The notes: a model not told the origin generated them from the sequence alone. Positions 3,103 through 41,523 are shown, numbered from the stretch's first letter. The stretch is DNA of 64,000 bases from Candidatus Eiseniibacteriota bacterium (GCA_005893265.1 VBOX01000087.1:128-64127), one strand, 5' to 3'. A program made the numbers and translations.

Positions 3103-4565
3103 GCCGGCCCCCGCGCCAAGTCCTGGACGGTCTGCGCCACGATCCGCGCGATCTCTCGAACCGAGTATCCCTGGAGACTCATGGCCTCCGGGCCGCCTCG
3201 GGGCGCGGGCGCGCATTCGATGAGAACCGCCGGCGATGCAATCGACTCGAGGACGCTCAGCCTCCCCGTTCGGAAGGCGACACTCGTCTGCGGAAAGTTG
3301 CGGGCGAGTGCGTCCGCGATCGCCTGACCGACCGCCATGCTCGTCCCCGTGGCCTGATTCTGCGCGGAGTCCCACGGATGCATCTCCGCCCCTCCGTCAC
3401 TTCCCAGCGTGACCGGCAGCCGGTCCGCCGCTCCGGGCGCGGGCGTGGGTGAGAGCGCGTAGACACGGAACCCACCCGCGCGAATCAGCCCTTCACCGTC
3501 GAAGTGGATGCTCAAGAAGAGCTCGCCCCCCGATTCGTTCGCGATCTCCGCGCGTCGAGAGAGCCGCACGTCGGTATCTCCCTCGCGCGTGAGCACGACG
3601 CGCACTCCGAGGCGATCTTGAAGCTCCGTGCGGAGCGCGCGTGCGAGGTCCAGTGCGGCCTCCTTCTCGGAGCCTCCCCTCGGGAGCGGCGCGCCCGGGT
3701 CGCTCCCACCATGGCCGGGATCGATCACGACGGTGCGTATCCGATGGTCCGGGCCGCCGAGCGCGAGCGGCTCCAGCTTGGAGAAGATTCCCGATTGAAC
3801 GAGGTCGTGATCATCGGTGACCGCGAGCTTCAAGCGGCTCGAGCTGACCGAGACAGAGTAGCCCTGCGCGCCCGGGGCGAGGACGAGCCGAATCTCGACG
3901 CCGTCGGACGTTTCCTGGATCGTGCCGCTCAAGACCGCGCCTCCCGAGAAGATGCGCGTCGAATCGAGCGTCCCCCCCTCGAAGAGAAGCCGGAGCTCAC
4001 TGGGGGTCGCGTAGATCAGGCGCGGCGAGAGCGTCTTGAGGAGGGTCGCGGAGACCTCGGTGACGCGCCCGCGGACCCAGAGCTGCGCCTGCCGCACGGT
4101 GTGCACCTGCGATCGGAATCGGATCGTGCGCGAGGGCACGTCCCAGGCCGCGTTCGTGACGAGTCCCCAGTCCATGAGGCCCCCGAGCACCGACTCCGGA
4201 ACGTACACCGCGCCCTGAACGAGACGCGGAGGCAGCACCAGATTCTTCGCCTCCTCGTCGACGAGCACGATCGGAGCATCGACCGTGAAGCGGATCGTGT
4301 GGTCCCCGAGGCGGAGGGATAACTTACGAACATCGGGGCGCCAATACTTTGTCGCGCGGAACACGCGCGCGAGATCGTTCGTCGAGATGTAGCGGGTCCC
4401 CGAGAGCGTGATGGGCGCGATCCGCTCCGGCGATTGCGGATCGGGGTAGATCACGTCGATCGAGGACCCAGCCTGGATTGCGAGCGCGGCGGGGATCGCG
4501 AGCCCGAGGAGGGAGGCCGTGAAGACGGCGACGAGGGCGCGGGTGGCGCCAGAGGCGCGGGTCAC
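3099..4565 (-). CDS. N-acetylmuramoyl-L-alanine amidase (Amidase_3, AmiC-like) with signal peptide
   Basis: VVIDPGHGG, RVVLTREGD, LFLSIHFDG in the C-terminal catalytic domain. Signal peptide at the N-terminus. Confidence 0.85.
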   Translation of the reverse strand: MTRASGATRALVAVFTASLLGLAIPAALAIQAGSSIDVIYPDPQSPERIAPITLSGTRYISTNDLARVFRATKYWRPDVRKLSLRLGDHTIRFTVDAPIVLVDEEAKNLVLPPRLVQGAVYVPESVLGGLMDWGLVTNAAWDVPSRTIRFRSQVHTVRQAQLWVRGRVTEVSATLLKTLSPRLIYATPSELRLLFEGGTLDSTRIFSGGAVLSGTIQETSDGVEIRLVLAPGAQGYSVSVSSSRLKLAVTDDHDLVQSGIFSKLEPLALGGPDHRIRTVVIDPGHGGSDPGAPLPRGGSEKEAALDLARALRTELQDRLGVRVVLTREGDTDVRLSRRAEIANESGGELFLSIHFDGEGLIRAGGFRVYALSPTPAPGAADRLPVTLGSDGGAEMHPWDSAQNQATGTSMAVGQAIADALARNFPQTSVAFRTGRLSVLESIASPAVLIECAPAPRGGPEAMSLQGYSVREIARIVAQTVQDLARGPA

Positions 4566-29690: not shown

Positions 29691-30667
29691 TCCCGAACGA
29701 TCCGGGTTCCCGCCGTCCCTTCCAAAGCCTCGCGGATCTTCTCCGGCGAGGTGATGAAAACCGAGCCTCCCCCACTACGCACGAACTCGATCGCGGCTTG
29801 GATCTTCGGACCCATGCTCCCCTGAGGAAAATGCCCCTCGGCCATGAATCGTTCAAGCTCCGATGCGGTGGCGGTCGTGAGATCCCGCTGGTCGGGCTTT
29901 CCGAAATGGACAGCGACGCGGTCCACTCCGGTCACGATCAGGAGCGCCTCCGAGTCGAGCAACCTCCCCAGGAGCGAGGACGCGAGGTCCTTGTCGATGA
30001 CCGCCTCGACGCCGTGGAGCGTTCCGTCCCACTGGCGCGAGACAGGGATCCCGCCGCCCCCGGCCGCGATTACAACGTTTCCATCCTGCACGAGCTTCCG
30101 GATCGCGGCGATCTCCACGATCTCGAGCGGCTTCGGGGAAGGAACGACGCGCCGGTACCCCCGCCCCGCATCCTCCACCACGGTCCACCCCTTCTCCTTC
30201 GCCAGGGTTCGCGCGCGCTCGTGGGAGTAGAAGGGACCAATCGGCTTCGTGGGGCGGCGGAACGCCGGGTCCCGCTCGTCCACGATCACCTGCGTCACCA
30301 TGGTGACGACCGGGCGGTGGATGCCGATCCGGTGAAGCTCGTTCTGGAGCGTCTGCTGCATCATGTAGCCGATCCCGCCCTGCGAATCGGCACCGCATAC
30401 GTCGAGGGGCATCGGCGGGATCTGATCCCGCGCCGCCTCGTTTCGGATCAGAATGTTTCCGACGATCGGCCCGTTGCCGTGGCTCAGCACCACGGTGACC
30501 CCCTCGTGGATCAGCCGCGCGATCGGCTCCATCGTCACGCGGGTTATCGCAAGCTGCTCTTCGAACGTGCCCGTCCCGCGGGCGGGCAGAATGGCATTCC
30601 CGCCGAGCGTGATCACGGCGGACCGGGGTAGCTTGTTTGCGCGCGGCTCGACTTCGCGCGGCGTCAT
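29687..30667 (-). CDS. arcC: carbamate kinase
   Basis: ITLGGNAI, SHGNGP.VG, IAAGGGGIPV; length 326 aa. Confidence 0.85.
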   Translation of the reverse strand: MTPREVEPRANKLPRSAVITLGGNAILPARGTGTFEEQLAITRVTMEPIARLIHEGVTVVLSHGNGPIVGNILIRNEAARDQIPPMPLDVCGADSQGGIGYMMQQTLQNELHRIGIHRPVVTMVTQVIVDERDPAFRRPTKPIGPFYSHERARTLAKEKGWTVVEDAGRGYRRVVPSPKPLEIVEIAAIRKLVQDGNVVIAAGGGGIPVSRQWDGTLHGVEAVIDKDLASSLLGRLLDSEALLIVTGVDRVAVHFGKPDQRDLTTATASELERFMAEGHFPQGSMGPKIQAAIEFVRSGGGSVFITSPEKIREALEGTAGTRIVRD

Positions 30668-30670
30668 CCG

Positions 30671-31849
30671 TCAGCGCGCGGCCCGAATCTGGCTCTGGAC
30701 CCAGGCGCCGATGCGGCGGAGCGCCTCGCGTATGTTCTCGACCGAGTTGGCGTAAGAGAAGCGCATGTAACCCTCGCCGTGCGAGCCGAACGCGGTCCCG
30801 GACAGCGCCGCGACGCCGGCCTCCTCGAGGAGGATCCGCTCCGCGTCGGCGCTCGTCATCTGGAGCGCCTGAATATTCGGGAACACGTAGAAGGCGCCCG
30901 CCGGCTTCAAACATCGGATCCCGGGGATCGCGTTCAAGCCCTGGACGATCTCGTCGCGCCGCCGATGGAACTCGGTGACCATGCTTCCGACTTCACTCTG
31001 GGCCCCGCCCAGCGCCACGATCGCCGCCCGCTGCACGAACGAGGTCGCGCAGGAATAGACGTTCGTGGCGAGCCGCGCGACGTGCTTCGCGAGCGTCGGA
31101 TTCATGATCCCGTATCCGAGGCGCCAGCCGGTCATCGCGTAGGTCTTCGAGAATCCGTCGAGGAGGATTGTCTTCTCGGCCATTCCCGGACGGGTGGCGA
31201 TCGACTCGTGGACCCCATCGTAGAGAATCTTGGAATAGATCTCGTCGGATAGAACGAAGATCTCGCGGTCGCGCAGCAGTGCGGCGATCTCGTCGAGATC
31301 CTTGGGCGTGAGGACCGAGCCTGTCGGGTTGTGCGGCGAGTTGAGCACCACCATCCGCGTCTTCGGCGTGAGCAGGGGCTCGAGATCCTCGGCGCCGACC
31401 CGGAATCCGCGGTCTTCGCGCAGCACCATGGGAACGGGCTTCGCGCCGATGAACCGGACGACCGATTCGTAGATGGGAAAGCCCGGATTCGGCACGATGA
31501 CTTCGTCCCCCGGGTTCACGCACGCCATGATCGCGAACGTGAGCACGGGTTTTCCTCCCGGGGTCACGACCACCTGGTCCGGGGCTGTCTTGAGTCCCCG
31601 GTCGCGGGTGATGAAGGCCGCGATCGCCTCGCGCACCTCGGGCAGCCCCGCCGAGGGACCGTAGTGCGTGAACCCCTCGTCGAGGGCACGCGCCGCCGCC
31701 GCGCGGATCGAAGCCGGGGTATCGAAGTCGGGCTCTCCGATTTCGAGGTGCACGATCGACCGGCCCTGGGCCTCCAGGGCCCTCGCCTTCGCGAGGACCT
31801 CGAAGGCCGTTTCGGTGCCGAGCTGATTCATCCGGTCCGCATATCGCAT
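30671..31849 (-). CDS. class I/II pyridoxal-phosphate aminotransferase (aspartate aminotransferase family)
   Basis: VVLNSPHNPTG, GFSKTYAMTGWRLGY (PLP-Lys). Confidence 0.85.
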   Translation of the reverse strand: MRYADRMNQLGTETAFEVLAKARALEAQGRSIVHLEIGEPDFDTPASIRAAAARALDEGFTHYGPSAGLPEVREAIAAFITRDRGLKTAPDQVVVTPGGKPVLTFAIMACVNPGDEVIVPNPGFPIYESVVRFIGAKPVPMVLREDRGFRVGAEDLEPLLTPKTRMVVLNSPHNPTGSVLTPKDLDEIAALLRDREIFVLSDEIYSKILYDGVHESIATRPGMAEKTILLDGFSKTYAMTGWRLGYGIMNPTLAKHVARLATNVYSCATSFVQRAAIVALGGAQSEVGSMVTEFHRRRDEIVQGLNAIPGIRCLKPAGAFYVFPNIQALQMTSADAERILLEEAGVAALSGTAFGSHGEGYMRFSYANSVENIREALRRIGAWVQSQIRAAR

Positions 31850-31857
31850 CGTGTCTC

Positions 31858-33384
31858 CTAGGGTGACCGATTCAACCTGAGCCAGAGCGTTCCGCTCCAG
31901 GGTCTGGCGCCGCCCGAGTCCTCACCCCGCTCGAGCGCGTATCCGAACTGCCAGAGCCGGGGCCCAAACCCACCGCGCGCGGAGACCCAGAGGCCCGGCT
32001 TCGATCGCGTTCGCAACGTAGTGTCGCCGGACGGCGTGAGCCCGATGCCCCATGCCGATGCGCCTTTCCGGATCCGCGTCGCCTCGACCAGCAGCGAGTG
32101 CCGGCCGAGCTTTCGCATGCGCAGGTCGAGCCTCGAACCGAATGTCGTGCTCGACGCGCTCGATCCGGCGTTTCTGGAGCCGCGTTTCAGCACGTGCACG
32201 GCGAGGCTGCGCCGGTCGTCGCGGGCGAGGGTCGCATCGGCGAGCCCGTAGGACTCGAGTGCCGTGGGCCGATTGCCCACGCGCCCGAGGCCGGCGGTCC
32301 CCACTCGCAGCCGCAGGGGCGCGCCGTCGCCTCGCGACCTCGTCACCTCCAGCTCCAGGAGCCCGTCGTCGGCCGTCGCGTTGCCCGACCAGGAACGCCA
32401 CGTCACGCGGGCCCGCGAAGCGGAGCCGATCGTTTCCGCGCTCAGCTCTGCGGCAACCTGCCTCGCCGTCCAAGAGCGATACCGCCAGCGCGCGGAGAGA
32501 AACGCGTTCCCGCTCCGTCTCCCGACTTCCGCTAGGAGCGCGCGTCCATCACGGCAGTCGAGCGCTTCCAGCGCCACGTTCCCGCTTTGGGCTCGTCGTA
32601 CGACGGTGATCGAGCCGCAGCGCAAAGGTGGAACCGAGGCCCCGCCCCCAGCCGTCTTCGTCTCCGCATCCGCGGCCCGGCCGCGCAAGTCCGCGCCGAA
32701 CGCCGCCACGGCGCGGGTTCGCCCCCATGCAGCCCCTAGCCCCACGCCCCCGATCGGCTCGCGGGTCTCGCTTCGGAACCCGGCGAACGCCCAGATCGCC
32801 TGGGGCCCGTTCCACGTGAATGCGCCTCCGTCGAGCGCTCCGGCCGAAGCGCCAAGCGAGGGCTGTGCGCGCGCCGTGCCCGTCCTCGGCCCCAGCAAGC
32901 GGCGGCCGCCCCGCGTGATGCGCATCGCTTCCGCGAATAGCGCGGGGCCGCGCGTCACGCTCACCCGGCCTCCAGCCAACACGAGGCGCTCCCCGCCGAC
33001 CGTCAAACGGGCTCCCGGCCTGAACCGCCGCTCGTCCACGAGGAAGCCAAGCTCGCCGCGCGCGCCCCGGCGCTCATCGAGCACGCCGATCCGCCGCAGC
33101 CGAAACTGCCCGCGGGTGACCGCGCCCCGAAACAGCGCGCAGGGCCGCAGGGGCGCCCGCTCCTCCTCCAAGGGCTCTGTGGTCTCGAGATCCTCTTCCG
33201 GGGCCGGCAACCACGCATCGCCGCCATCCGTGGAATCCGGCTCCGCCGGCGCCTGGCTCGCCCCATCCAGAACAGCCGCATCCGCCGCCGCGCATCTCAC
33301 CGACGTCGCCATCAAGGGCATGCCGGCGGCGAACACGAAGCACAGATGCCTTGAAAATGGCGCGAGCCGAGTGCGCCGGCGCAT
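31858..33384 (-). CDS. hypothetical secreted/outer-membrane protein (beta-rich; 3' segment of the 1882-codon open frame)
   Basis: N-terminal signal-like MRRRTRLAPFSRHLCFVFAAGMPLMA after a 360-bp divergent intergenic region. Alternating hydrophobic beta-strand pattern. Ends 6 nt upstream of the aminotransferase start. Confidence 0.4.
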   Translation of the reverse strand: MRRRTRLAPFSRHLCFVFAAGMPLMATSVRCAAADAAVLDGASQAPAEPDSTDGGDAWLPAPEEDLETTEPLEEERAPLRPCALFRGAVTRGQFRLRRIGVLDERRGARGELGFLVDERRFRPGARLTVGGERLVLAGGRVSVTRGPALFAEAMRITRGGRRLLGPRTGTARAQPSLGASAGALDGGAFTWNGPQAIWAFAGFRSETREPIGGVGLGAAWGRTRAVAAFGADLRGRAADAETKTAGGGASVPPLRCGSITVVRRAQSGNVALEALDCRDGRALLAEVGRRSGNAFLSARWRYRSWTARQVAAELSAETIGSASRARVTWRSWSGNATADDGLLELEVTRSRGDGAPLRLRVGTAGLGRVGNRPTALESYGLADATLARDDRRSLAVHVLKRGSRNAGSSASSTTFGSRLDLRMRKLGRHSLLVEATRIRKGASAWGIGLTPSGDTTLRTRSKPGLWVSARGGFGPRLWQFGYALERGEDSGGARPWSGTLWLRLNRSP

Positions 33385-33744
33385 GATAGCAGAGGGTCCC
33401 GGGGGCAACAACGCCGCCATGGACCGCCGCGATCGAGCCCGGCGCGAGCCTCGCAACGATGCGACAAACCCAACAGCCCAGGCGATTTCGGTGGAAGTGA
33501 CCTCGCCGATCGAGTATAATACTTCACGCCGCTTCCGAGTGGCTGTCGCGGTCGGGGAGCGGATGTCGCAAACATCCAGCATGCGAGGTCTCCCCGAGGC
33601 GACATGCCCAGCCCGTGCCGGTCTGCCGTCAGATGTCGCGCCGTGCCTGGCCTGTCCTTCGCCCCGGAGCGCCCTCGAGATCGGGCATCGATTCGAATCC
33701 ACCTTCTTTCCGCACCAGTCGATCGATCCAGAAGGAGCTCCCCT

Positions 33745-36594
33745 ATGCGACGTAGTGCTACTGCGCTGATCGTGTCTCTCTTTCTCTCGGCATCCCTCTC
33801 CGGCGGCTCTGTCGCCTCCTCGAGCGTGCCCGCGCCGTCCGGTGAGACGGTCCTCCCGGGTGTGGTCCCGACCCAGATCCCCGAGAGCGGGCCCGAAGTC
33901 GGACAGCCCCCGGCTCGCGCTGGGCGTTCGATGCGTACGGCTGCTACCGGAGAGACGGTCTGGGTTTTCATCGACAGTCTCGAGACGCGCACGAGCCCTA
34001 ACAACGAGGGAGGGTGGACCCACTACGACGCTTCCGCGAAGCCGACCGCGTGGCACATCGATACCTTCCTCGGGTGCCAGAACCATTCGTGGTGGTGCGG
34101 GGTCATCGACTCTTCCTGGATTTACGACTCGAATCGCGCCGGGTACGACAACGACTGGACTCAATACCTCCAGAACTCGTTCCCCTCGAGCGCCGCACCG
34201 GCGGGAAGCCAGGTCACGATCAGCTTCAGGCACCACTTCGACGCCGAGCCCCTTTATGACTTTGGGTACGTCGAAGTGAACGATCTCGATAACAACTGGC
34301 AGCAGCTCGCTTTCTTCACGGGAAAGGTTCCGAATAGCTCCCTTTGCGACACCTTCACGGTGAACGTTCCAGATTCCATCGTCGCGAAGTGGCGCGCTGG
34401 GAACGACGGCACCGGCACGAACCCCCTTCCGGTGCCGTTCCGGTTCAATTTCACGAGCGATATCGGCTATTCCTCGGCGGACGGCCTTTACAACGGAGAC
34501 GGCTGGATCATCGACAACGTCACCGTCAAGTCGGGCTCGAACGTCATCTTCTCCGACAACGTGGAAAACGGGATGGGTAACTGGCAGCGGTCCACGTTCC
34601 CCGGCGTGGGCGACTTCTTCTACCTCCAAAGCAACGTCCTGACCGAGGACGTGTGTTCCTCGAATCAATCGAAGGTCTGGACCGACTGGAACCAGGCCAC
34701 CCTGACCCTGGTTCCCCGTCTGGACAACTTCGTCGTGACCCCACCGGTCGCGACGAACCGGGCGAGCACGGTCTTTGTCAATTTCGATGTCTACCGAAAC
34801 CTTCCGCTCAACTCGTGCTTCTACTACCACACGAATTTCCGAACGAAGAACATCGGTGACGCCCAGTGGGGAAACTGGATCGACCCGACTTTCTTTGTTT
34901 ATTACGGGGGAAACAAAGACTGGATCCGCCAGGCGATCTCGCTGCCTGGGGCGGGCGGCAAGGATTCCGTGCAGGTGGAGTTGGGCCTCCGGGATTACGC
35001 CATCGTCTTTTGCGGCGGCAACTCGTCCTCCTCCAACACATATGGGTTGTTCGACAACGTCGCGATCGGAGTAATCGGCCAGACCGGCCCCGGCTTCATC
35101 GTGCGCGACATAGACCTTTTCAACGACACGTTCCAGACGACCCCGTTCTTCCGAGACGACAACTTCAACAGCCCGCTCGGTGACACCACGGTCGTGCAGG
35201 TCAGCGCGTCGCACGGGTACAAGAACGGCTTCATGTATTACAGATTTAATGGCGGGTCGTTCAACTCGGTCCCACTCCAGCACGTGGCGCCGGCGCTCCC
35301 GACCCATTTCTTCGCCGACGTTCCTCCCGGGAGCTACCCGGCAAACACGACCCTGGAGTATTACTTCGCGGCGACGGACAGCCAGAACGTCACCGCCTAT
35401 TTCCCGGTCGACGCGATCACGAACCAGCGCTATCGCTCGGCTTCGATCCTGCCTGTGAAGACGGCCATCAATCTGCCGATGGGGTGCAGCGACAGCCTCG
35501 CCTCGATCCTCTTCGTGAATCACTTCTCGGGGCGCGAGCCGCAAGCGTACACCGCGTCCGCGCTGACCGCGCTCGGGTTCAAGTACGACACATGGGATGT
35601 GAACGGCCCGACGAGCGGAATCGGAAACTGCCTCGGCGGCTCCGACCCGACCGATATCCAGTACCACTGGCCGGTGACGGACGTCGGCAAGCTGCTTCAG
35701 TACTCCACGATCATCTGGCACTCGGGGGATCTCTCCTCGTTCACCATCACGCCTCAGGATCAGGCGGTGATCCAGTCCTGGATCCAGCAGCCGGGGAAGG
35801 ACCGCAACTTCTGGATCTCCGGGGACGACGTTGGCTACGATCTCATGGCAAACAGCGGCGCGAATAACTACAACGGCTTCCTGGGGTTCACGTGCGGCGT
35901 GCTCTGGCTGCGGAACAACTGGGAGAACACCCCTCAGGACACGCTCCATCCGGTCGTGAAAGGGGTGCCCGGGGGTCCCGCGGCGGGGCGGTTCATGCAC
36001 CTGAACGGGGGTTGTCCCATCATCAATCAGTTTGATCTGGTCACACTTTCCTCGGCCGCGAACCAGGGCAAGTCGGGCAACCTGCTCACGTACCCCAACA
36101 GTTTCGCCGCCGCGACGCGTTACGCCACCGATTACAACACCTTCAGCCCGACCGACAGCGCGAGGTCCGTCTTCTGCGGGTTCGGCTTCAACGCGATCGA
36201 GGAGGGGGGCGAAAGGCTCCAGCTCACGAACGCGATCGTCCACAACTACTTCAAGGAAAACGCCTGCTACACGGCTACGGGGGTGGAGGAGGGATCGGGT
36301 GAGGAAGCTCCGACGTTCCGGAGCAGCCTCGGGCAGAACATGCCGAACCCGTTCAACCCCGAGACCGCGATCCACTACTCTGTGGCGCGCGCGGGCCAGG
36401 TTGATATCCGCATCTACAACGTAAGCGGGGCCCTTGTGCGCACTCTGGTGAGTCACGTTCAGCCTCCCGGCGAGTACGTCGCGCGCTGGAACGGGGCGGA
36501 TGATCAGGGGCACCAGCTCCCGAGCGGAGCCTACTTCTACGTGCTCGATACGAAGGGATTCCGGGCTTCGAAGAAGCTGATCCTCCTCCGTTAG
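33745..36594 (+). CDS. large secreted protein (949 aa) with C-terminal FlgD-Ig/T9SS-type sorting domain; function unknown; markedly lower GC than flanks
   Basis: GAAGGAG RBS, signal peptide MRRSATALIVSLFLSASLSGG, Asn/Trp/Tyr-rich ectodomain. C-terminal NPFNPETAIHYSV..GQVDIRIYNVSGALVRTL...GAYFYVLDTKGF; strong terminator follows. Confidence 0.8.
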   Translation: MRRSATALIVSLFLSASLSGGSVASSSVPAPSGETVLPGVVPTQIPESGPEVGQPPARAGRSMRTAATGETVWVFIDSLETRTSPNNEGGWTHYDASAKPTAWHIDTFLGCQNHSWWCGVIDSSWIYDSNRAGYDNDWTQYLQNSFPSSAAPAGSQVTISFRHHFDAEPLYDFGYVEVNDLDNNWQQLAFFTGKVPNSSLCDTFTVNVPDSIVAKWRAGNDGTGTNPLPVPFRFNFTSDIGYSSADGLYNGDGWIIDNVTVKSGSNVIFSDNVENGMGNWQRSTFPGVGDFFYLQSNVLTEDVCSSNQSKVWTDWNQATLTLVPRLDNFVVTPPVATNRASTVFVNFDVYRNLPLNSCFYYHTNFRTKNIGDAQWGNWIDPTFFVYYGGNKDWIRQAISLPGAGGKDSVQVELGLRDYAIVFCGGNSSSSNTYGLFDNVAIGVIGQTGPGFIVRDIDLFNDTFQTTPFFRDDNFNSPLGDTTVVQVSASHGYKNGFMYYRFNGGSFNSVPLQHVAPALPTHFFADVPPGSYPANTTLEYYFAATDSQNVTAYFPVDAITNQRYRSASILPVKTAINLPMGCSDSLASILFVNHFSGREPQAYTASALTALGFKYDTWDVNGPTSGIGNCLGGSDPTDIQYHWPVTDVGKLLQYSTIIWHSGDLSSFTITPQDQAVIQSWIQQPGKDRNFWISGDDVGYDLMANSGANNYNGFLGFTCGVLWLRNNWENTPQDTLHPVVKGVPGGPAAGRFMHLNGGCPIINQFDLVTLSSAANQGKSGNLLTYPNSFAAATRYATDYNTFSPTDSARSVFCGFGFNAIEEGGERLQLTNAIVHNYFKENACYTATGVEEGSGEEAPTFRSSLGQNMPNPFNPETAIHYSVARAGQVDIRIYNVSGALVRTLVSHVQPPGEYVARWNGADDQGHQLPSGAYFYVLDTKGFRASKKLILLR

Positions 36595-36628
36595 CGCGCC
36601 TCGCTCGCGGTGGAGCTTCGAAGACTCG

Positions 36629-36664
36629 CGGGGGCCCGCCTTCTCGGCGGGCCTCCCCCTTTTC
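36629..36664. terminator. rho-independent terminator (GGGGGCCCGCC-ttctc-GGCGGGCCTCCCCC-TTTT)
   Basis: GC-rich 11-bp stem followed by a T-run, immediately after the 33745..36594 stop. Confidence 0.65.
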
Positions 36665-37497
36665 CCGGACGCGAGGCCCAAACGAATGCCCGTGATCGTT
36701 CCCCCGAACGCGTAGTCGAGCCTTCCCCAGGACGCCTCGATATTCCCTGTCCTCACTTCGAGCGCCGCCCCGATCCTGCCGGGGGCCGAGCCGCGTCCCA
36801 GCCTTAGGCGCAACGCCTCCCCGAACGGAACCTCGAGCGCCATGCGCGGGCCATGGGTCCCGTCCGGCTGCCAACGGTCCACGATCGCTACGCGCGCTGA
36901 TCCCGCGCTAAGCGAGGCGCCCAGCTCCAAGGCGGCGCGGACGGCCCCCCGCTCCAGCGCTCGGGTTCTCAGAATCCGGTCGCCACCGATCCACACATCC
37001 AGCCGCCCACCCGCTGCGCCGCGGGCGCATCCGCCGAGCGCCCAGCCACCCCAGGCTTCCGAGCCCTCGGGGAGAAAATCGAGGCGCTCCACGCGGAGGG
37101 CCAAAGCGATCGGGCGTGCGGCACGTTCCCTGACCTCAAGACGGACCGACGACTCGCCCGTCCCCGGGCCGGAGAGCGCAGCGTATTCAAGGCGGAACGC
37201 ATGAGTCTTTTGCTGCAGGGAGATGTCGAGCTGGTTCAGCGACAGGGCATCGGCGCCGAAGGGGGACGCGCGGGTTGCCCCAGCGCGCCACGAAAGTCCG
37301 GTCATGCCAGCCGACGCGGAGTCTGCGGGATCACCTGACGCCTCCGGGCTGGAACCACCATCGAAAGTGCGCCATGCGCCGTCGGTGGAAGCGGTGCCCA
37401 ACGCGTCCGGGCTGGCGTCCCGGAGCTCGAACGCTGCCCAGGCGTGGGGCAACGGCACCGCCGCGCTCCACAGGAGAAAGGCCGCGACGAACCTCAT
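36640..37497 (-). CDS. putative outer-membrane beta-barrel protein (signal peptide; 3' end undefined because the frame has no stop before entering the antisense of the convergent gene)
   Basis: ATG overlaps the TGA of the upstream LTD gene (ATGA). Signal MRFVAAFLLWSAAVPLPHAWA, then amphipathic beta-strands (AFRLEYAALSG, RLDYAFGGTITGIRLGL). The 36640 end is an arbitrary placement. Confidence 0.3.
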
Positions 37498-39251
37498 CGC
37501 GTCCACCGATCCACCACGGAGAGGGTAAGGGCTGCGCTCCTGATCGGCTCGCGGTCGTCCGGAATCGTTTCGGCCCGCACGATGTAGATCCCGGCCGGCA
37601 CGGGACTACCCTGGTCGTCGCGGCCGTCCCAGAGAAACGCTCCTTCACCCAGGATTCGCTGCCCGTCGACGAGGAGCCGCCGCGGGCGGCCCAGGAGGTC
37701 GTGCACGAAGACGCGGACCCGGCTCCCGCGCGCCTCCTCGCTGAATCGCAACACGACCGGGGCGGCCGGCAATCCGGGCGCCCGCCGAACCACGCGCGCG
37801 CTTGCGATGAGAAGCGAGCCGCGGCGTCCCACGCCCGTACCCGGGGCCGGGGCCTGAATGGAGTTCGGCCGAGCCGGCGTTCCCGATCGAGGGTCGATCG
37901 ATTCCGTCCAGGAGCTCGCCGACGCGCTGGGGAGCATCGTCCCGAGGCGCTCGAGCGATCCGTCTCGCGCGGTGTACCCCGCGCGATAGGGGACGACATC
38001 GGATGGCGTGCCGGACGCATCCACGACGCGCACACGGTCGGCGAAACCGTCCTCGCCGTCGGCGTCGTTGAGGGCCGCCCAGCCTCCGAGGCATCCTAGG
38101 ACCGCGCTGTCCGGCAGCGAGTAGCTCCTGCGCAACATCTCGGGGGACTGCGCGATGACAATGATCGCCCCCGCGTGAGCCGGGCGCGGTGTCGGCCCCC
38201 GATCGATCGCGTAGGCGCGGCCGCCCGCGTCGGAAAGCGCGAAGAACCCGACGTCCGCGACCTCTTCACGAGCCATCACCTCGACCCATTCCCCCGCCCC
38301 TCGATCCCGGAACGCGATTTCGTTCACGACGAGCGGGCCGGCCGTCGACCGCGCCTCAAGGAGCGCGGTGTCCGCGACGGCGGACCCATATGTGAATGGC
38401 TCAACGCCGAGATCGCGCAGGTAGAGCCGGAGACCGAACCTCCCGGGCGGAGGCGTGAAGAGCGCGCAGTGCACGCTCGCGCTTTCTCCCGGAGCGACGG
38501 TGGAGCCTGGGCTGATCCCCACCGGCGCGGCGGACCACGGGCTATCCGGCCTGTCCCCGACGCGCACGACAACCTCGGCTTGCCATCGAGCCGCCGGGAC
38601 CAACTGGCGCCCGAGGTTCTTCACGGTCGCCCGCAAGGTCGCGACATCCCCGGGCCATGGCACATCCGGCACGAGACGGGCGCTTCCGCGCGTGAAGGAG
38701 AGCCGGATGTCGGGATGGTTCGCGAGCCCCGGCGTGGGGCTCGGTTCGGGCGCCCAGTCCGCCGCGTTCCACTGGGTGTCCACACCGTCCGCAATCCGAG
38801 AGAGAGATTGTCCGGAGGATACGTCCGCGGCGGGCGCGCCCTCAAAGAGCTCGCGGGCGGTGAGCGTCCCGTAACCCAGGAGGTCGAGCACGATGCCCGC
38901 GCGGGTCAGACGAATCGCGTCCGGACCGTTCTGGAGGGGAGCGAGAAGGGAAGACCCCGGGATCAGAAACGCGTGCCGGGGAGACACCGAATCGCCGACC
39001 GCGCCCACGTAGACCGGGGTCCAAACCCCCGGTCGTGAGCCGTCGCCAGACTCCACCGCGATCCCGACCAGCGAAAGGGCGACGGTGTCCGGATTCCAGA
39101 GCTCCACGAACTCCGATCCCTCATCGATCCCCTCGGGGTCGTACAACACCTCGTTCAGGAGGATTTCGGCGTCGGAACGCGAAACGTGCGCGGCGAGCAA
39201 GACGAGAGCGGCGAGACAGAACGCGGGCTTGCGCCCGAACATGCGCGGCAT
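37494..39251 (-). CDS. secreted protein with two lamin-tail domains and C-terminal FlgD-Ig/T9SS-type sorting domain
   Basis: Start MPRMFGRKPAFCLAALVLLAAHVS with an AGGGGG RBS. ILLNEVLYDPEG.DEGSEFVELWNP and LVVNEIAFRDRGAGEWVEVM. C-term ..GEGAFLWDGRDDQGSPVPAGIYIVRAET. Confidence 0.7.
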   Translation of the reverse strand: MPRMFGRKPAFCLAALVLLAAHVSRSDAEILLNEVLYDPEGIDEGSEFVELWNPDTVALSLVGIAVESGDGSRPGVWTPVYVGAVGDSVSPRHAFLIPGSSLLAPLQNGPDAIRLTRAGIVLDLLGYGTLTARELFEGAPAADVSSGQSLSRIADGVDTQWNAADWAPEPSPTPGLANHPDIRLSFTRGSARLVPDVPWPGDVATLRATVKNLGRQLVPAARWQAEVVVRVGDRPDSPWSAAPVGISPGSTVAPGESASVHCALFTPPPGRFGLRLYLRDLGVEPFTYGSAVADTALLEARSTAGPLVVNEIAFRDRGAGEWVEVMAREEVADVGFFALSDAGGRAYAIDRGPTPRPAHAGAIIVIAQSPEMLRRSYSLPDSAVLGCLGGWAALNDADGEDGFADRVRVVDASGTPSDVVPYRAGYTARDGSLERLGTMLPSASASSWTESIDPRSGTPARPNSIQAPAPGTGVGRRGSLLIASARVVRRAPGLPAAPVVLRFSEEARGSRVRVFVHDLLGRPRRLLVDGQRILGEGAFLWDGRDDQGSPVPAGIYIVRAETIPDDREPIRSAALTLSVVDRWTR

Positions 39252-39360
39252 GGGATTCCCCCTTGAAGAGGAGGCGGGGGGAGTGTCGGTAGGATCGGCG
39301 GCGCTCGGGGAGCGCCCTCGCTCTCGGGGTACGTTGGAAGCCGGCGGGTCGGGTGACGCC

Positions 39361-41523
39361 CTAAAGCAAATGGAACCTCTTCCGCAAAACCCATTCCGCG
39401 GTCGCACCGAGGACGAGCACGAGGAAAAGCGGGACGTTGTGGAAAATATCCAGCTCGATGATGCGAGCCCTGGCGATGTCGGGCGAGCGCAGCCTCGCGA
39501 GAACCGGTCCCGAGCGGGCAAGGGGCGCGGCAACGCCTCCCGAGCGCGAGGCGAGCCGCTCGAGCACGGAAGGCTCCGCGCCAAGCGATTCAAATTCGAC
39601 TCCCTGCTCACCCACCGCGACCTGAAGGCTGTCGGTGCCCACCAATCGGCCCGCGCGCTCCACGCGCCCCACGAGCCAATAGACCCCCTCCGGAAGCGCG
39701 ATGGAGCCCGCGAAATCGCCCTGGATCGAGGCGCTGAGGCGCCCTTCACCGGCTACACCGCCGGCGCTCCGCCGCGCCCGCACGGTCGCCCGCGCCCCGG
39801 TGCCGACGGCGCCGTTCGCGAGCGCGAGCCGCACCGGGACCGCTCGCTCGGCCGGCGTCAGGTCGGGAGCGGAGATCCGAACCGGCCGGTCGTCCGCGCT
39901 CTGCGAGAGCCAGGCGTTGAGCCCTCCGAAGAAAGACGGCTCGATGCCGGCTCCGCCCCCCAGCCCGGCCGCCGTCAGGCCCCAGCGATAGACGCCCGCC
40001 GCGTTCAATACAGCGACACGGCCGGATCCGACCCGTCCGGCCAAGAGAAGTGGCGTGGTTTCGGTTCCGTAGCGCGCCTCGAGGAGGGGCGTGAGGGCAC
40101 TGCCTTTCAGGTTCAGGATGAGCGGCGACTGAATCGGCGGGAGCGAGCGCCAGGTGGCGACCGCGGTGGCGGCGTCCCCCCCGAGAAGCGAGACTTCGTG
40201 CGCCCTGCCGGCTTGAGACAGCTCCACCCCCGTGCTGGGCCCGGTCGCTCTGCCGAAGTCGCGCCACTCGAGGCCAAGAGCGTTCGTGAGAGGACCCGGG
40301 GCCGGGGGCCGATTGACCGGGTCGATCCAGAACAGCACGCCCCCTCCGCGATTGAGAAAACTTAGAGCCTCCGCGCTCCGCTCCGGGGTGAGCGTGCGGG
40401 AGTCGAATCGAAGGACAAGGACGTCTGCGTCGCGCAGCGCCTGCGCGAAGCTCTGTGGCGCGCCACCGGGGGCTCCAACGGAGGAGGATCCCGACGGAGC
40501 CCATCGCTGGATGGCCCAGGACGTGTCCTCCTCCACGCCGCGCGCGAAGGAGCGAAGGTCCCAGTCCCATGCCGTCGCCACAAGAGGTACCAGGCGTTTC
40601 GCCGGGCGTGCGGTGACCGCGATCAACCTCCTCTTGTTCTGTGTGATGGGATCCCCGGGCAAGCTGTCGAGCTTCACCGCGAGGAAATGCTTACCGCGTT
40701 CTCCGAGGGTGAAGGGGATCGTGACACGGCTCACCGAGCCGGGTCGCTCCAACGCGAACGAAGCGCGGCCCAGCTCCCGCGAGCCCTCGCTCAGGCGCGC
40801 GACCCCACGCGTCGCGGGGCGAGCCCCGTGGCGGACCGTCACGGAGAGCGTCGCCGGCCGACCGATGACGACCTCGCTCGGAGCATCGATCCCGCCGATG
40901 CCGGCCGTGGGAGGATCGCCTGTTGAGCCCACGACGAGCGCGAAGGCGGGTACGGTCGATGCCAGGGCGCGCTCCGGGTCCTCCCCGCGATTCACCGCGC
41001 CGTCGCTCAAGACAAGCATCGCCGCGAGCGAATCCGGATCCAGGCGGTCGAGCCCCTCGCGGATCGCATCCCCAAGCGCGGTCTCCCCCGCACCGCGCGT
41101 TTGGGTCGCGGCTTTCCACGACGAAGGTTTTCCAATCGGCCCCAACGAGGCATCGAAAGGCGCCAGCCGCACGTCGTACCGTCCCGAAAACCCACTCGCG
41201 ATCGCCGTCGCGGCGCTGTCCACAACCTCGCGCCGCGTTCGTCCCGCCGAGTCGCCGTCCCGGACCTCCATGCTTCCGGAATGGTCAACCAGGATGAGCA
41301 TCCGGTTCCGTTCGCGTGCTGCGCTCGAATACCGAACCACCGGGGCGAGCGAGGCGAAGAGGAGCGCCAGCAGCGTGGCGGTGCGGACGGCCGTGAGAAT
41401 CGCGCGGCGTCGCGGGAGGAGCGCCGGATACCGCGTGAGATAGAGCGAGAGCCCGAGAGCAAAGGCCGCCGCCAGGAGTACCAGCGCGACGATGTTGGGC
41501 GATGACGAGAGTGAGAAATTCAA
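39361..41523 (-). CDS. von Willebrand factor A (VWA) domain membrane protein (BatA-like; N- and C-terminal TM anchors)
   Basis: MIDAS motif MLILVDHSGSM..., two N-terminal TM helices, C-terminal TM VPLFLVLVLGATAEWVL. Confidence 0.65.
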   Translation of the reverse strand: MNFSLSSSPNIVALVLLAAAFALGLSLYLTRYPALLPRRRAILTAVRTATLLALLFASLAPVVRYSSAARERNRMLILVDHSGSMEVRDGDSAGRTRREVVDSAATAIASGFSGRYDVRLAPFDASLGPIGKPSSWKAATQTRGAGETALGDAIREGLDRLDPDSLAAMLVLSDGAVNRGEDPERALASTVPAFALVVGSTGDPPTAGIGGIDAPSEVVIGRPATLSVTVRHGARPATRGVARLSEGSRELGRASFALERPGSVSRVTIPFTLGERGKHFLAVKLDSLPGDPITQNKRRLIAVTARPAKRLVPLVATAWDWDLRSFARGVEEDTSWAIQRWAPSGSSSVGAPGGAPQSFAQALRDADVLVLRFDSRTLTPERSAEALSFLNRGGGVLFWIDPVNRPPAPGPLTNALGLEWRDFGRATGPSTGVELSQAGRAHEVSLLGGDAATAVATWRSLPPIQSPLILNLKGSALTPLLEARYGTETTPLLLAGRVGSGRVAVLNAAGVYRWGLTAAGLGGGAGIEPSFFGGLNAWLSQSADDRPVRISAPDLTPAERAVPVRLALANGAVGTGARATVRARRSAGGVAGEGRLSASIQGDFAGSIALPEGVYWLVGRVERAGRLVGTDSLQVAVGEQGVEFESLGAEPSVLERLASRSGGVAAPLARSGPVLARLRSPDIARARIIELDIFHNVPLFLVLVLGATAEWVLRKRFHLL

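Follow-up and report, generated by a model that had tools for sequence, protein, structure and literature searches.

How can a functional gene lack a stop codon and run on, in its own reading frame, through the whole antisense of its convergent neighbour? The question is raised by a 64-kb stretch of DNA from Candidatus Eiseniibacteriota (GCA_005893265.1, VBOX01000087.1:128-64127), referred to below as the window, in which the listing of open reading frames (ORFs) contains a stop-free minus-strand frame of 1882 amino acids (aa) with a GTG start, 31858..37506 (-), and nested within it a plus-strand ORF of 996 aa, 33604..36594. Comparison with related loci suggests that the middle of this frame, which is the antisense of a gene for a secreted protein (gene B), is kept open by the purging of three sense codons from that gene, while the encoded peptide is apparently free to vary. 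Positions are window coordinates unless another locus is named; the related loci of Eisenbacteria are labelled L001 and so on, and the set carrying gene B next to the upstream gene A comprises 14 lineages (the window, L006-L012, L014, L018, L021, L026, L032, and L033).

Composition of the 1882-Codon Frame

The GC (guanine plus cytosine) content of the window is ~70%, and a plot of GC content by codon phase divides the long frame into parts. Across ~33850-36550, the GC-rich third position (0.80-0.89) follows the plus-strand frame, and in 31900-33400 and 36550-37450 it follows the minus-strand frame. Plus- and minus-strand codons are aligned in antisense, with minus-strand position 1 opposite plus-strand position 3; the minus-strand frame is therefore open exactly where gene B has no TTA, CTA, or TCA codon. 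The 1882-codon frame is thus made up of gene A, then the antisense of gene B in the same register, the region between B and C, and finally gene C, into which it continues because the B-C region of the window happens to be stop-free in the frame of A. The sequence-only reading of this DNA, which saw two real minus-strand genes joined through the antisense of a real convergent plus-strand gene, is borne out in this respect by the GC content at third codon positions (GC3) and by homology. The parts are as follows:

36670..37497, minus strand: gene A core, with a signal peptide, a conserved AFELRDASP motif, and a predicted 14-strand barrel (residues 1-276)
36595..36669, minus strand: stop-less tail of gene A, which crosses the terminator hairpin of gene B (…GKRGRPAEKAGPR…) and then a non-conserved 17-codon spacer up to the B stop
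33745..36594, minus strand: antisense-B frame, 949 sense codons plus the complement of the B stop (CTA), stop-free and continuous with the frame of A
33745..36594, plus strand: gene B (B1), encoding a secreted protein of 949 aa that ends in a FlgD_ig / type IX secretion system (T9SS) type A C-terminal domain
36630..36663, plus strand: intrinsic terminator of gene B, GGGGGCCCGCC-TTCTC-GGCGGGCCTCCCCC followed by TTTT, with the hairpin kept in all B-containing loci compared
31858..33384, minus strand: gene C, a 508-aa signal-peptide protein predicted to form a large beta-barrel, with its start placed by alignment

The product of the whole 1882-aa frame matched no family in Pfam or in NCBIfam, and exact look-up of the window products (the 1879- and 1882-aa ORF, B, and C) in the protein collection gave no match. 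Gene B is the sole plus-strand gene: the other 16 real-looking genes (at least 243 codons, GC3 criterion, window 912-61646) all lie on the minus strand.

The real start of gene B lies at 33745: from this position on, homologs of 947-951 aa align over 100% of the query, and a Shine-Dalgarno sequence AAGGAG precedes it at 33732-33737. The C-terminus scores 38.1 bits for FlgD_ig (cutoff 27) and 28.7 bits for the T9SS type A sorting domain TIGR04183 (cutoff 23), which places the protein in that family; Pfam Por_Secre_tail remains below its cutoff (20 vs 27). Together with the hairpin and its T-run, these features agree with the ribosome-binding site, signal peptide, sorting domain, and terminator already seen in the sequence by itself. 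A simple promoter/terminator scanner reported no promoter-like site and missed the bulged hairpin of B. The family (~947 aa) is widespread in Candidatus Eisenbacteria, with at least 235 matches at 54-91% identity. Gene B was also noticed earlier for its low GC, and the value is indeed lower (0.58-0.63 vs ~0.70 in the surroundings), but it is not a sign of foreign DNA, because the deficit sits in codon positions 1 (0.55) and 2 (0.48) while GC3 is 0.82, as in the neighbours. A recent or foreign insertion of B in this genome is ruled out by its membership in a core family, its normal GC3, and the presence of the arrangement in both deep clades of the trees described below; no flanking repeats were found around B. 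Compared with L006, gene B has a ratio of nonsynonymous to synonymous substitution rates (dN/dS) of 0.21, and its dS of 0.256 lies within the range of its neighbours (0.21-0.29).

Gene A is functional, given its dN/dS of 0.24 in the same comparison, which indicates purifying selection, and a confident barrel model. The AlphaFold model of its protein has a mean predicted local distance difference test score (pLDDT) of 83, a predicted template modelling score (pTM) of 0.79, and 14 strands, and its best matches in the PDB are OmpG (E ~1e-8, TM up to 0.72), so that an OmpG-like 14-strand outer-membrane beta-barrel is predicted. The model of the gene C protein has a pLDDT of 71 and about 26-28 strands. 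Both results are in line with the earlier description of A as a signal-peptide, beta-barrel-like protein and of C as a signal-peptide, beta-rich one. Pfam and NCBIfam searches returned no family for either protein.

The Missing Stop Codon of Gene A

Homologs of gene A (family proteins of ~265-298 aa in a homolog search) terminate 10-30 residues past the last strand, and the window gene has no stop there. The same is true of the whole set: in 14 of 14 B-carrying lineages, gene A reaches B without a stop, and its frame is the codon-aligned antisense of B, even as identity across the lineages drops to 35-37% for A and to 61% for B. The A tail through the B hairpin is translated as KRRPAxxAGRR and is followed by a spacer of 15, 17, or 18 codons. 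Over tail and spacer, the frame of A holds no stop at any of the 14 loci, vs 3 and 8 stops in the two other frames, and the spacer has undergone at least three indel events, all multiples of 3.

The sequence-only reading had offered a lost stop, an indel near the 3' end, or a genuine 3' overlap as the cause and had pointed to the end of gene A at orthologous loci and to the reads as places to look. A lost stop, an indel, or a read-level error in this genome is not upheld: no stop was found in any of the 14 assemblies, all of which share the register, and the tail of L006 is 98% identical to that of the window without gaps.

At least 95% of the antisense-B frame is open in 11 of the 14 lineages. 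It ends 160-175 nucleotides (nt) past the B start codon in five of them, 141 nt past it in L032, and 42 nt past it in L026, and in the window, L006, and L010 the frame of A happens to fuse in frame with gene C.

Depletion of Stop-Making Codons in Gene B

The B genes adjacent to A contain 4 TTA, CTA, or TCA codons per 13,151, and 11 of the 14 genes have none. In the window gene alone, ~5 would be expected from the other real-looking genes of the window (54 per 9,968 codons), and none is present (P ~0.006). As a control, we used six independent B paralogs from another locus, which lie beside acyl-CoA dehydrogenase and usually 2-oxoglutarate dehydrogenase genes, away from any gene A; L025, one of the six, comes from the same metagenome-assembled genome as L018. 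These paralogs, with equal or higher GC3, carry 11 such codons per 5,537, and none of the six is free of them (Fisher p = 6e-4 per codon and 0.002 per gene). Expressed as stops in the aligned antisense frame per 100 codons, the values are 0.03 for A-adjacent B, 0.20 for the paralogs, and 0.15-0.40 for neighbour genes. The probability that at least 11 of 14 genes are stop-free is 3e-7 at the paralog rate and 2e-5 even at the lowest control rate, that of the aminotransferase alone.

The depletion is specific to frame and to codon. The two classes of B differ in the aligned antisense frame alone (ratio 0.15); in the remaining four frames, the ratios lie at 0.86-1.6. TCA makes up 0.006 of serine codons vs 0.020 and 0.030 in the comparison sets, and CTA 0 of 842 leucine codons vs 0.010 and 0.012. 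Only TCA, CTA, and TTA are affected; TCT and CTT occur at normal frequency, as do codons ending in A for Pro, Ala, Thr, Val, Gly, and Arg, and the ratio (TCA+CTA):(TCT+CTT) is 4:108 vs 65:228 (p = 1e-6). Four-fold degenerate sites are near saturation between lineages (identity 0.43-0.49 vs 0.39 by chance, like control genes), so the lineages represent nearly independent samples.

The antisense-B frame resembles a “shadow ORF” in being the codon-aligned antisense of a real gene without independent homology, but background codon usage does not explain its openness. To regard the middle of the composite as merely an untranslated shadow, as was done from the sequence alone, is not adequate, as stops have been specifically purged from that frame.

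The encoded peptide shows a different picture. Its dN/dS is 1.12 (window vs L006), its composition mirrors that of B, being rich in V (15.5%), R (14.8%), G, and E and nearly devoid of aromatics, and a Pfam search gave no family match. Purifying selection on the antisense protein, expected of a functional overlapping gene, was not detected: the dS of B is not reduced, and its four-fold sites are as variable as those of controls. Since the frame is open under these conditions, it is apparently the openness that is selected, with the amino acid sequence left free.

Gene Order and History of the Locus

Two further members of the conserved gene order are needed here:

37494..39749, minus strand: ORF for a secreted protein with LTD and FlgD_ig tail, the upstream operon member (from the ORF listing, family search, and homologs)
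30671..31849, minus strand: class I/II aminotransferase, 8 nt past the gene C stop, a conserved downstream operon member used as a control gene

The B-less loci L003-L005, L015-L017, and L019 carry LTD, A, C, aminotransferase, and AA kinase in succession, and the stop of A overlaps the ATG of C by 4 nt or is separated from it by 5-6 nt (L015-L017); L020 has the same gene order. In the 13 lineages besides the window, the same order holds with B placed in reverse between A and C. The arrangement thus has the layout of a noncontiguous operon, in which co-oriented genes are split by a gene of opposite orientation (LTD-A-[B reversed]-C-aminotransferase in 14 lineages).

In neighbour-joining trees of LTD and A, B-containing loci occur in both deep clades, and some B-less loci are nested among them. 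At B-less L002 (10769-10834), the A tail consists of the left arm of the B terminator followed by TTA CCG GAG CAG GAT GAG CTT CTT, which is the exact antisense of the B stop and the last seven codons of B, i.e., a deletion scar; an unrelated plus-strand gene lies next to A in place of C. The nested B-less loci and this scar show that the arrangement is old and has been lost repeatedly. On the same grounds we revised an initial idea, drawn from L003, in which an A-C operon had received B by a lineage-specific insertion.

Proposed Mechanism and Alternative Explanations

The synteny of the B-less relatives shows A and C to be parts of a single, tightly coupled transcription unit, which B splits. 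We suggest, with a probability of about 0.55, that ribosomes coming from A go on translating for ~950 codons of antisense B and that uninterrupted translation is selected, most likely to keep a noncontiguous operon translated. According to this scheme, the minus-strand transcript of the LTD-A…C-aminotransferase unit would cross B in antisense, which the B terminator is not expected to prevent because its T-run lies on the B strand only. Ribosomes finishing the barrel of A would keep going over antisense B, and the operon RNA, covered by them, would be protected against Rho-dependent polarity, against RNases, or against forming a duplex with the B mRNA, so that C and the downstream genes may still be expressed. 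The three stop-making codons (TTA, CTA, and TCA) have been purged from the B copies that adjoin A. That translation itself is what matters is suggested by a frame that is open without peptide constraint and continuous with a stop-less gene. Precedents exist for both elements: noncontiguous operons are well established (PMC11034616), and it is known that Rho is kept from loading by translating ribosomes (PMC5021804, PMC12360218). More tentatively, and with somewhat less than an even chance of being right, one can propose that in this clade of Eisenbacteria the 2.85 kb of B are translated on both strands in the same register, the antisense strand acting as a “ribosome track” maintained by the purging of three codons.

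Several observations weigh against this scheme. The sample is small (14 loci vs six paralogs) and comes from metagenome-assembled genomes. Three lineages tolerate antisense stops; L007 has one in the middle of the gene, and L018, L021, and L033 stop 33-147 nt short of the B start codon (33 nt in L018, ~140 nt in L021 and L033). Past the B start, the frame ends about where chance would place a stop, and the gap from there to the ATG of C varies from 52 nt to ~500 nt, so there is no sign of selection for delivering ribosomes to C, which might itself be transcribed from the conserved promoter-like region between B and C. The antisense RNA of B is G-rich and not C-rich (plus-strand GC skew is negative) and for this reason would be a poor classical Rho substrate. 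Finally, a 14-strand barrel with an unstructured C-terminal extension of ~1000 aa would be costly and would need trimming.

Two other explanations share much of the same evidence, and we consider each of them unlikely, to a similar degree. The antisense-B stretch could be a functional part of protein A, either as a real domain or as a sequence-independent, disordered periplasmic extension or tether. Stop avoidance and the conserved register speak for it equally, selection seems to be limited to the tail and the B overlap without reaching C, and a dN/dS near 1 is compatible with a function of length or composition only. Yet a dN/dS of 1.12 with an undepressed dS in B, four-fold sites as free as in controls, no Pfam match, and a composition that merely mirrors B speak against this explanation; relatives that lost B end A 10-30 residues past the last strand and evidently function, and in L007 the length is interrupted. 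The frame could instead be an ordinary shadow ORF: high GC3 makes TTA, CTA, and TCA rare, and an insertion of B that removed the A stop and landed in register would have been inherited, with junk translation tolerated. The codon-aligned antisense is known to be the most open frame of GC-rich genes (literature reviewed in PMC7457138), and the window has other long examples, such as 32264..33769 (+), 501 aa, antisense to C; the background is very low in some genomes (one target codon per ~1,700-1,900 codons in the L010 and L018 controls), and the antisense dN/dS is near 1. Nevertheless, paralogs of equal or higher GC3 all carry target codons, and the depletion is restricted to the aligned frame and to TCA, CTA, and TTA, sparing TCT, CTT, and other A-ending codons. 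An inherited stop-free state should have decayed, because synonymous sites are saturated. Although a useless product would be cut short by a stop in the tail, none occurs in 14 lineages (the other frames have 11 there), and the indels observed are all in frame.

Much less probable is a non-canonical end of gene A near the B hairpin, by programmed frameshifting at an A-run or by stalling and rescue on a transcript ending at the hairpin, which would make the downstream frame irrelevant. Most loci do show an A-run and then a very stable GC hairpin right past the last barrel strand, and in the window a +1 frame stop at 36593-36591 overlaps the B stop codon. However, the A-run is simply the complement of the T-run of the B terminator and is missing in L010, L011, and L021; there is no conserved slippery heptamer, and the position of the first +1/+2 stops is not conserved, ranging from -84 to +241 nt with respect to the B stop. 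As both the slippery sequence and the shifted-frame stop are non-conserved, programmed frameshifting at the A-run and hairpin is ruled out, and a non-canonical end would in any case not account for the stop purge over 950 downstream codons. Neutral inheritance and non-canonical termination thus fit the data poorly. Least credible of all is an indel introduced by sequencing or assembly, or a pseudogenising mutation that arose recently in this genome. It has nothing in its favour beyond the absence of a stop in a single sequence; the identical architecture in 13 other independent assemblies, the gapless, 98% identical tail of L006, and the purifying selection on A (dN/dS 0.24) speak against it, and the comparative data rule out an assembly error or indel.

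Neighbouring Genes and the B-C Intergenic Region

The LTD ORF ends at 37494 and gene A begins at 37497, giving the TGA/ATG overlap (ATGA), which bears out the translational coupling of A to the LTD gene proposed earlier. The 751-aa LTD ORF (GTG at 39749) overlaps the end of an upstream 720-aa ORF, 39361..41523; as LTD homologs have only 577-611 aa, its true start probably lies further downstream, near 39300. The dN/dS values (window vs L006) are 0.25 for LTD, 0.31 for gene C, and 0.12 for the aminotransferase. The start of gene C at 33384 is backed by P0142 (508 aa, 98% identical), and its family has ~500 aa.

A C-terminal beta-signal ending in an aromatic residue was not found in the gene A family, as the B-less homologs end in 10-30 non-aromatic residues. 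The closest relative of gene A in the protein database is P0001, with 84% identity (L001 1280-1579), which departs from the A family at about residue 250 and stops early; an unrelated convergent gene, not B, follows. Either the locus was rearranged once more at this position, or the 1.6-kb metagenome contig L001 is a chimera.

Further long shadow ORFs of 277-501 aa occur in the window antisense to real minus-strand genes, at 32264-33769 (+), 29798-30631 (+), and 39085-40365 (+), and are typical of a GC-rich genome. Their host genes, unlike gene B, carry TTA, CTA, or TCA elsewhere.

The region between B and C contains a putative regulatory element:

33385..33744, no strand assigned: B-C divergent intergenic region, 95% identical to L006, vs ~78% at synonymous sites

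In the direction of B, GTGGAA (33491-33496), an 18-nt spacer, and TATAAT (33515-33520) are conserved ~233 nt upstream of the B ATG. At 33564-33605, the half-sites TGTCGC…GCGACA are invariant among the B-containing loci and always spaced by 29 nt; the sequence between them varies, without covariation. An RNA stem was dropped as an explanation of this inverted repeat, which, with invariant half-sites and no covariation, is more like a DNA operator; the whole element at 33491-33605 looks like an operator or a regulated promoter. No known RNA family was found in the region by an Rfam search with E up to 1. In five lineages, the stop of the long ORF (TGA or TAG) falls inside the promoter/half-site element. 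Directly ahead of the gene C ATG (33385-33420), the sequence GCGTTGTTG…CCCTCTGCTATC is conserved in B-containing loci of both deep clades; it contains no Shine-Dalgarno sequence, and its end, CTGCTAT-ATG, also occurs in B-less L003, where it is the 3' end of gene A.

The six B paralogs of the other locus (L022, L023, L025, L029, L030, and L031, at ~4460-4500) differ from the A-adjacent copy in having no long leader, no inverted repeat, and no strong Shine-Dalgarno sequence. In several of them, a TATAAT-like box lies just ~15 nt ahead of the ATG, which suggests that their mRNAs have a very short leader or none. A-adjacent B and the paralogs appear to be regulated quite differently.

Comparison with Known Systems and Significance

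The locus shares with noncontiguous operons and excludons (the menE operon of S. aureus; PMC11034616, PMC7154746) the layout of co-oriented, linked genes split by a gene on the opposite strand, which an operon transcript would have to overlap in antisense. The described cases cross the embedded gene as untranslated antisense RNA and have mutual repression via RNase III as a hallmark; here the upstream frame itself continues in register through the crossing segment, stop-free for ~2.85 kb, along a presumed spanning transcript. The arrangement thus appears to add to the noncontiguous-operon layout an in-register, stop-purged frame across the embedded gene. The olg1 and olg2 genes of Pseudomonas aeruginosa (957 and 1536 nt; PMC8850804, reviewed in PMC7457138) are likewise long ORFs lying antisense within conserved genes of a bacterium of high GC content, and comparative data support them as more than chance shadows. 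They have their own starts and purifying selection on the antisense protein, whereas the 2,850 nt considered here continue gene A without a start of their own and show, at a dN/dS of 1.12, stop avoidance alone. With the shadow ORFs of GC-rich genomes, the frame shares the strand relation, the three codons, the mirror composition, and the lack of independent homology, but its openness goes beyond what is predicted from the same genomes, gene family, and codon families, and the gene upstream of it has no stop. As in translational coupling and Rho-dependent polarity (PMC5021804, PMC12360218), the ribosome is proposed to keep Rho and nucleases off the nascent RNA for the benefit of distal genes, and the B-less relatives have a classical A-C coupling of the ATGA type or over a few nt; the known cases, however, are normal sense ORFs. 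In the literature searched, there is no description of a gene antisense used as a 950-codon ribosome track, or of a stop-purged in-register frame across an embedded gene.

The arrangement has a consequence for annotation. The practical risk was earlier seen in a false call of the 1882-aa frame, but gene callers in fact keep B and drop A: they leave an empty gap of ~860-920 nt at the place of A in L026-28 and L032, and in L033 they make a 293-aa call in the wrong frame there. None of 10 B-containing contigs contributes to the A-family proteins found by the homolog search, and B-less contigs do. The gene A family is thus missing from protein catalogues for the B-containing arrangement, since callers cannot call a stop-less gene that overlaps a strong one.

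If our suggestion is true, this locus would represent selection on the openness of a reading frame without constraint on the peptide, linking operon architecture, antisense transcription, and the coupling of transcription and translation. Gene B would be barred by the other strand from three sense codons over 949 positions. It would be a new way to keep a noncontiguous operon functional and the longest known case of in-register antisense translation. Noncontiguous operons are regarded as not computationally predictable (PMC11034616), and stop-purged in-register antisense frames would then provide a predictor of them that can be detected in the sequence.

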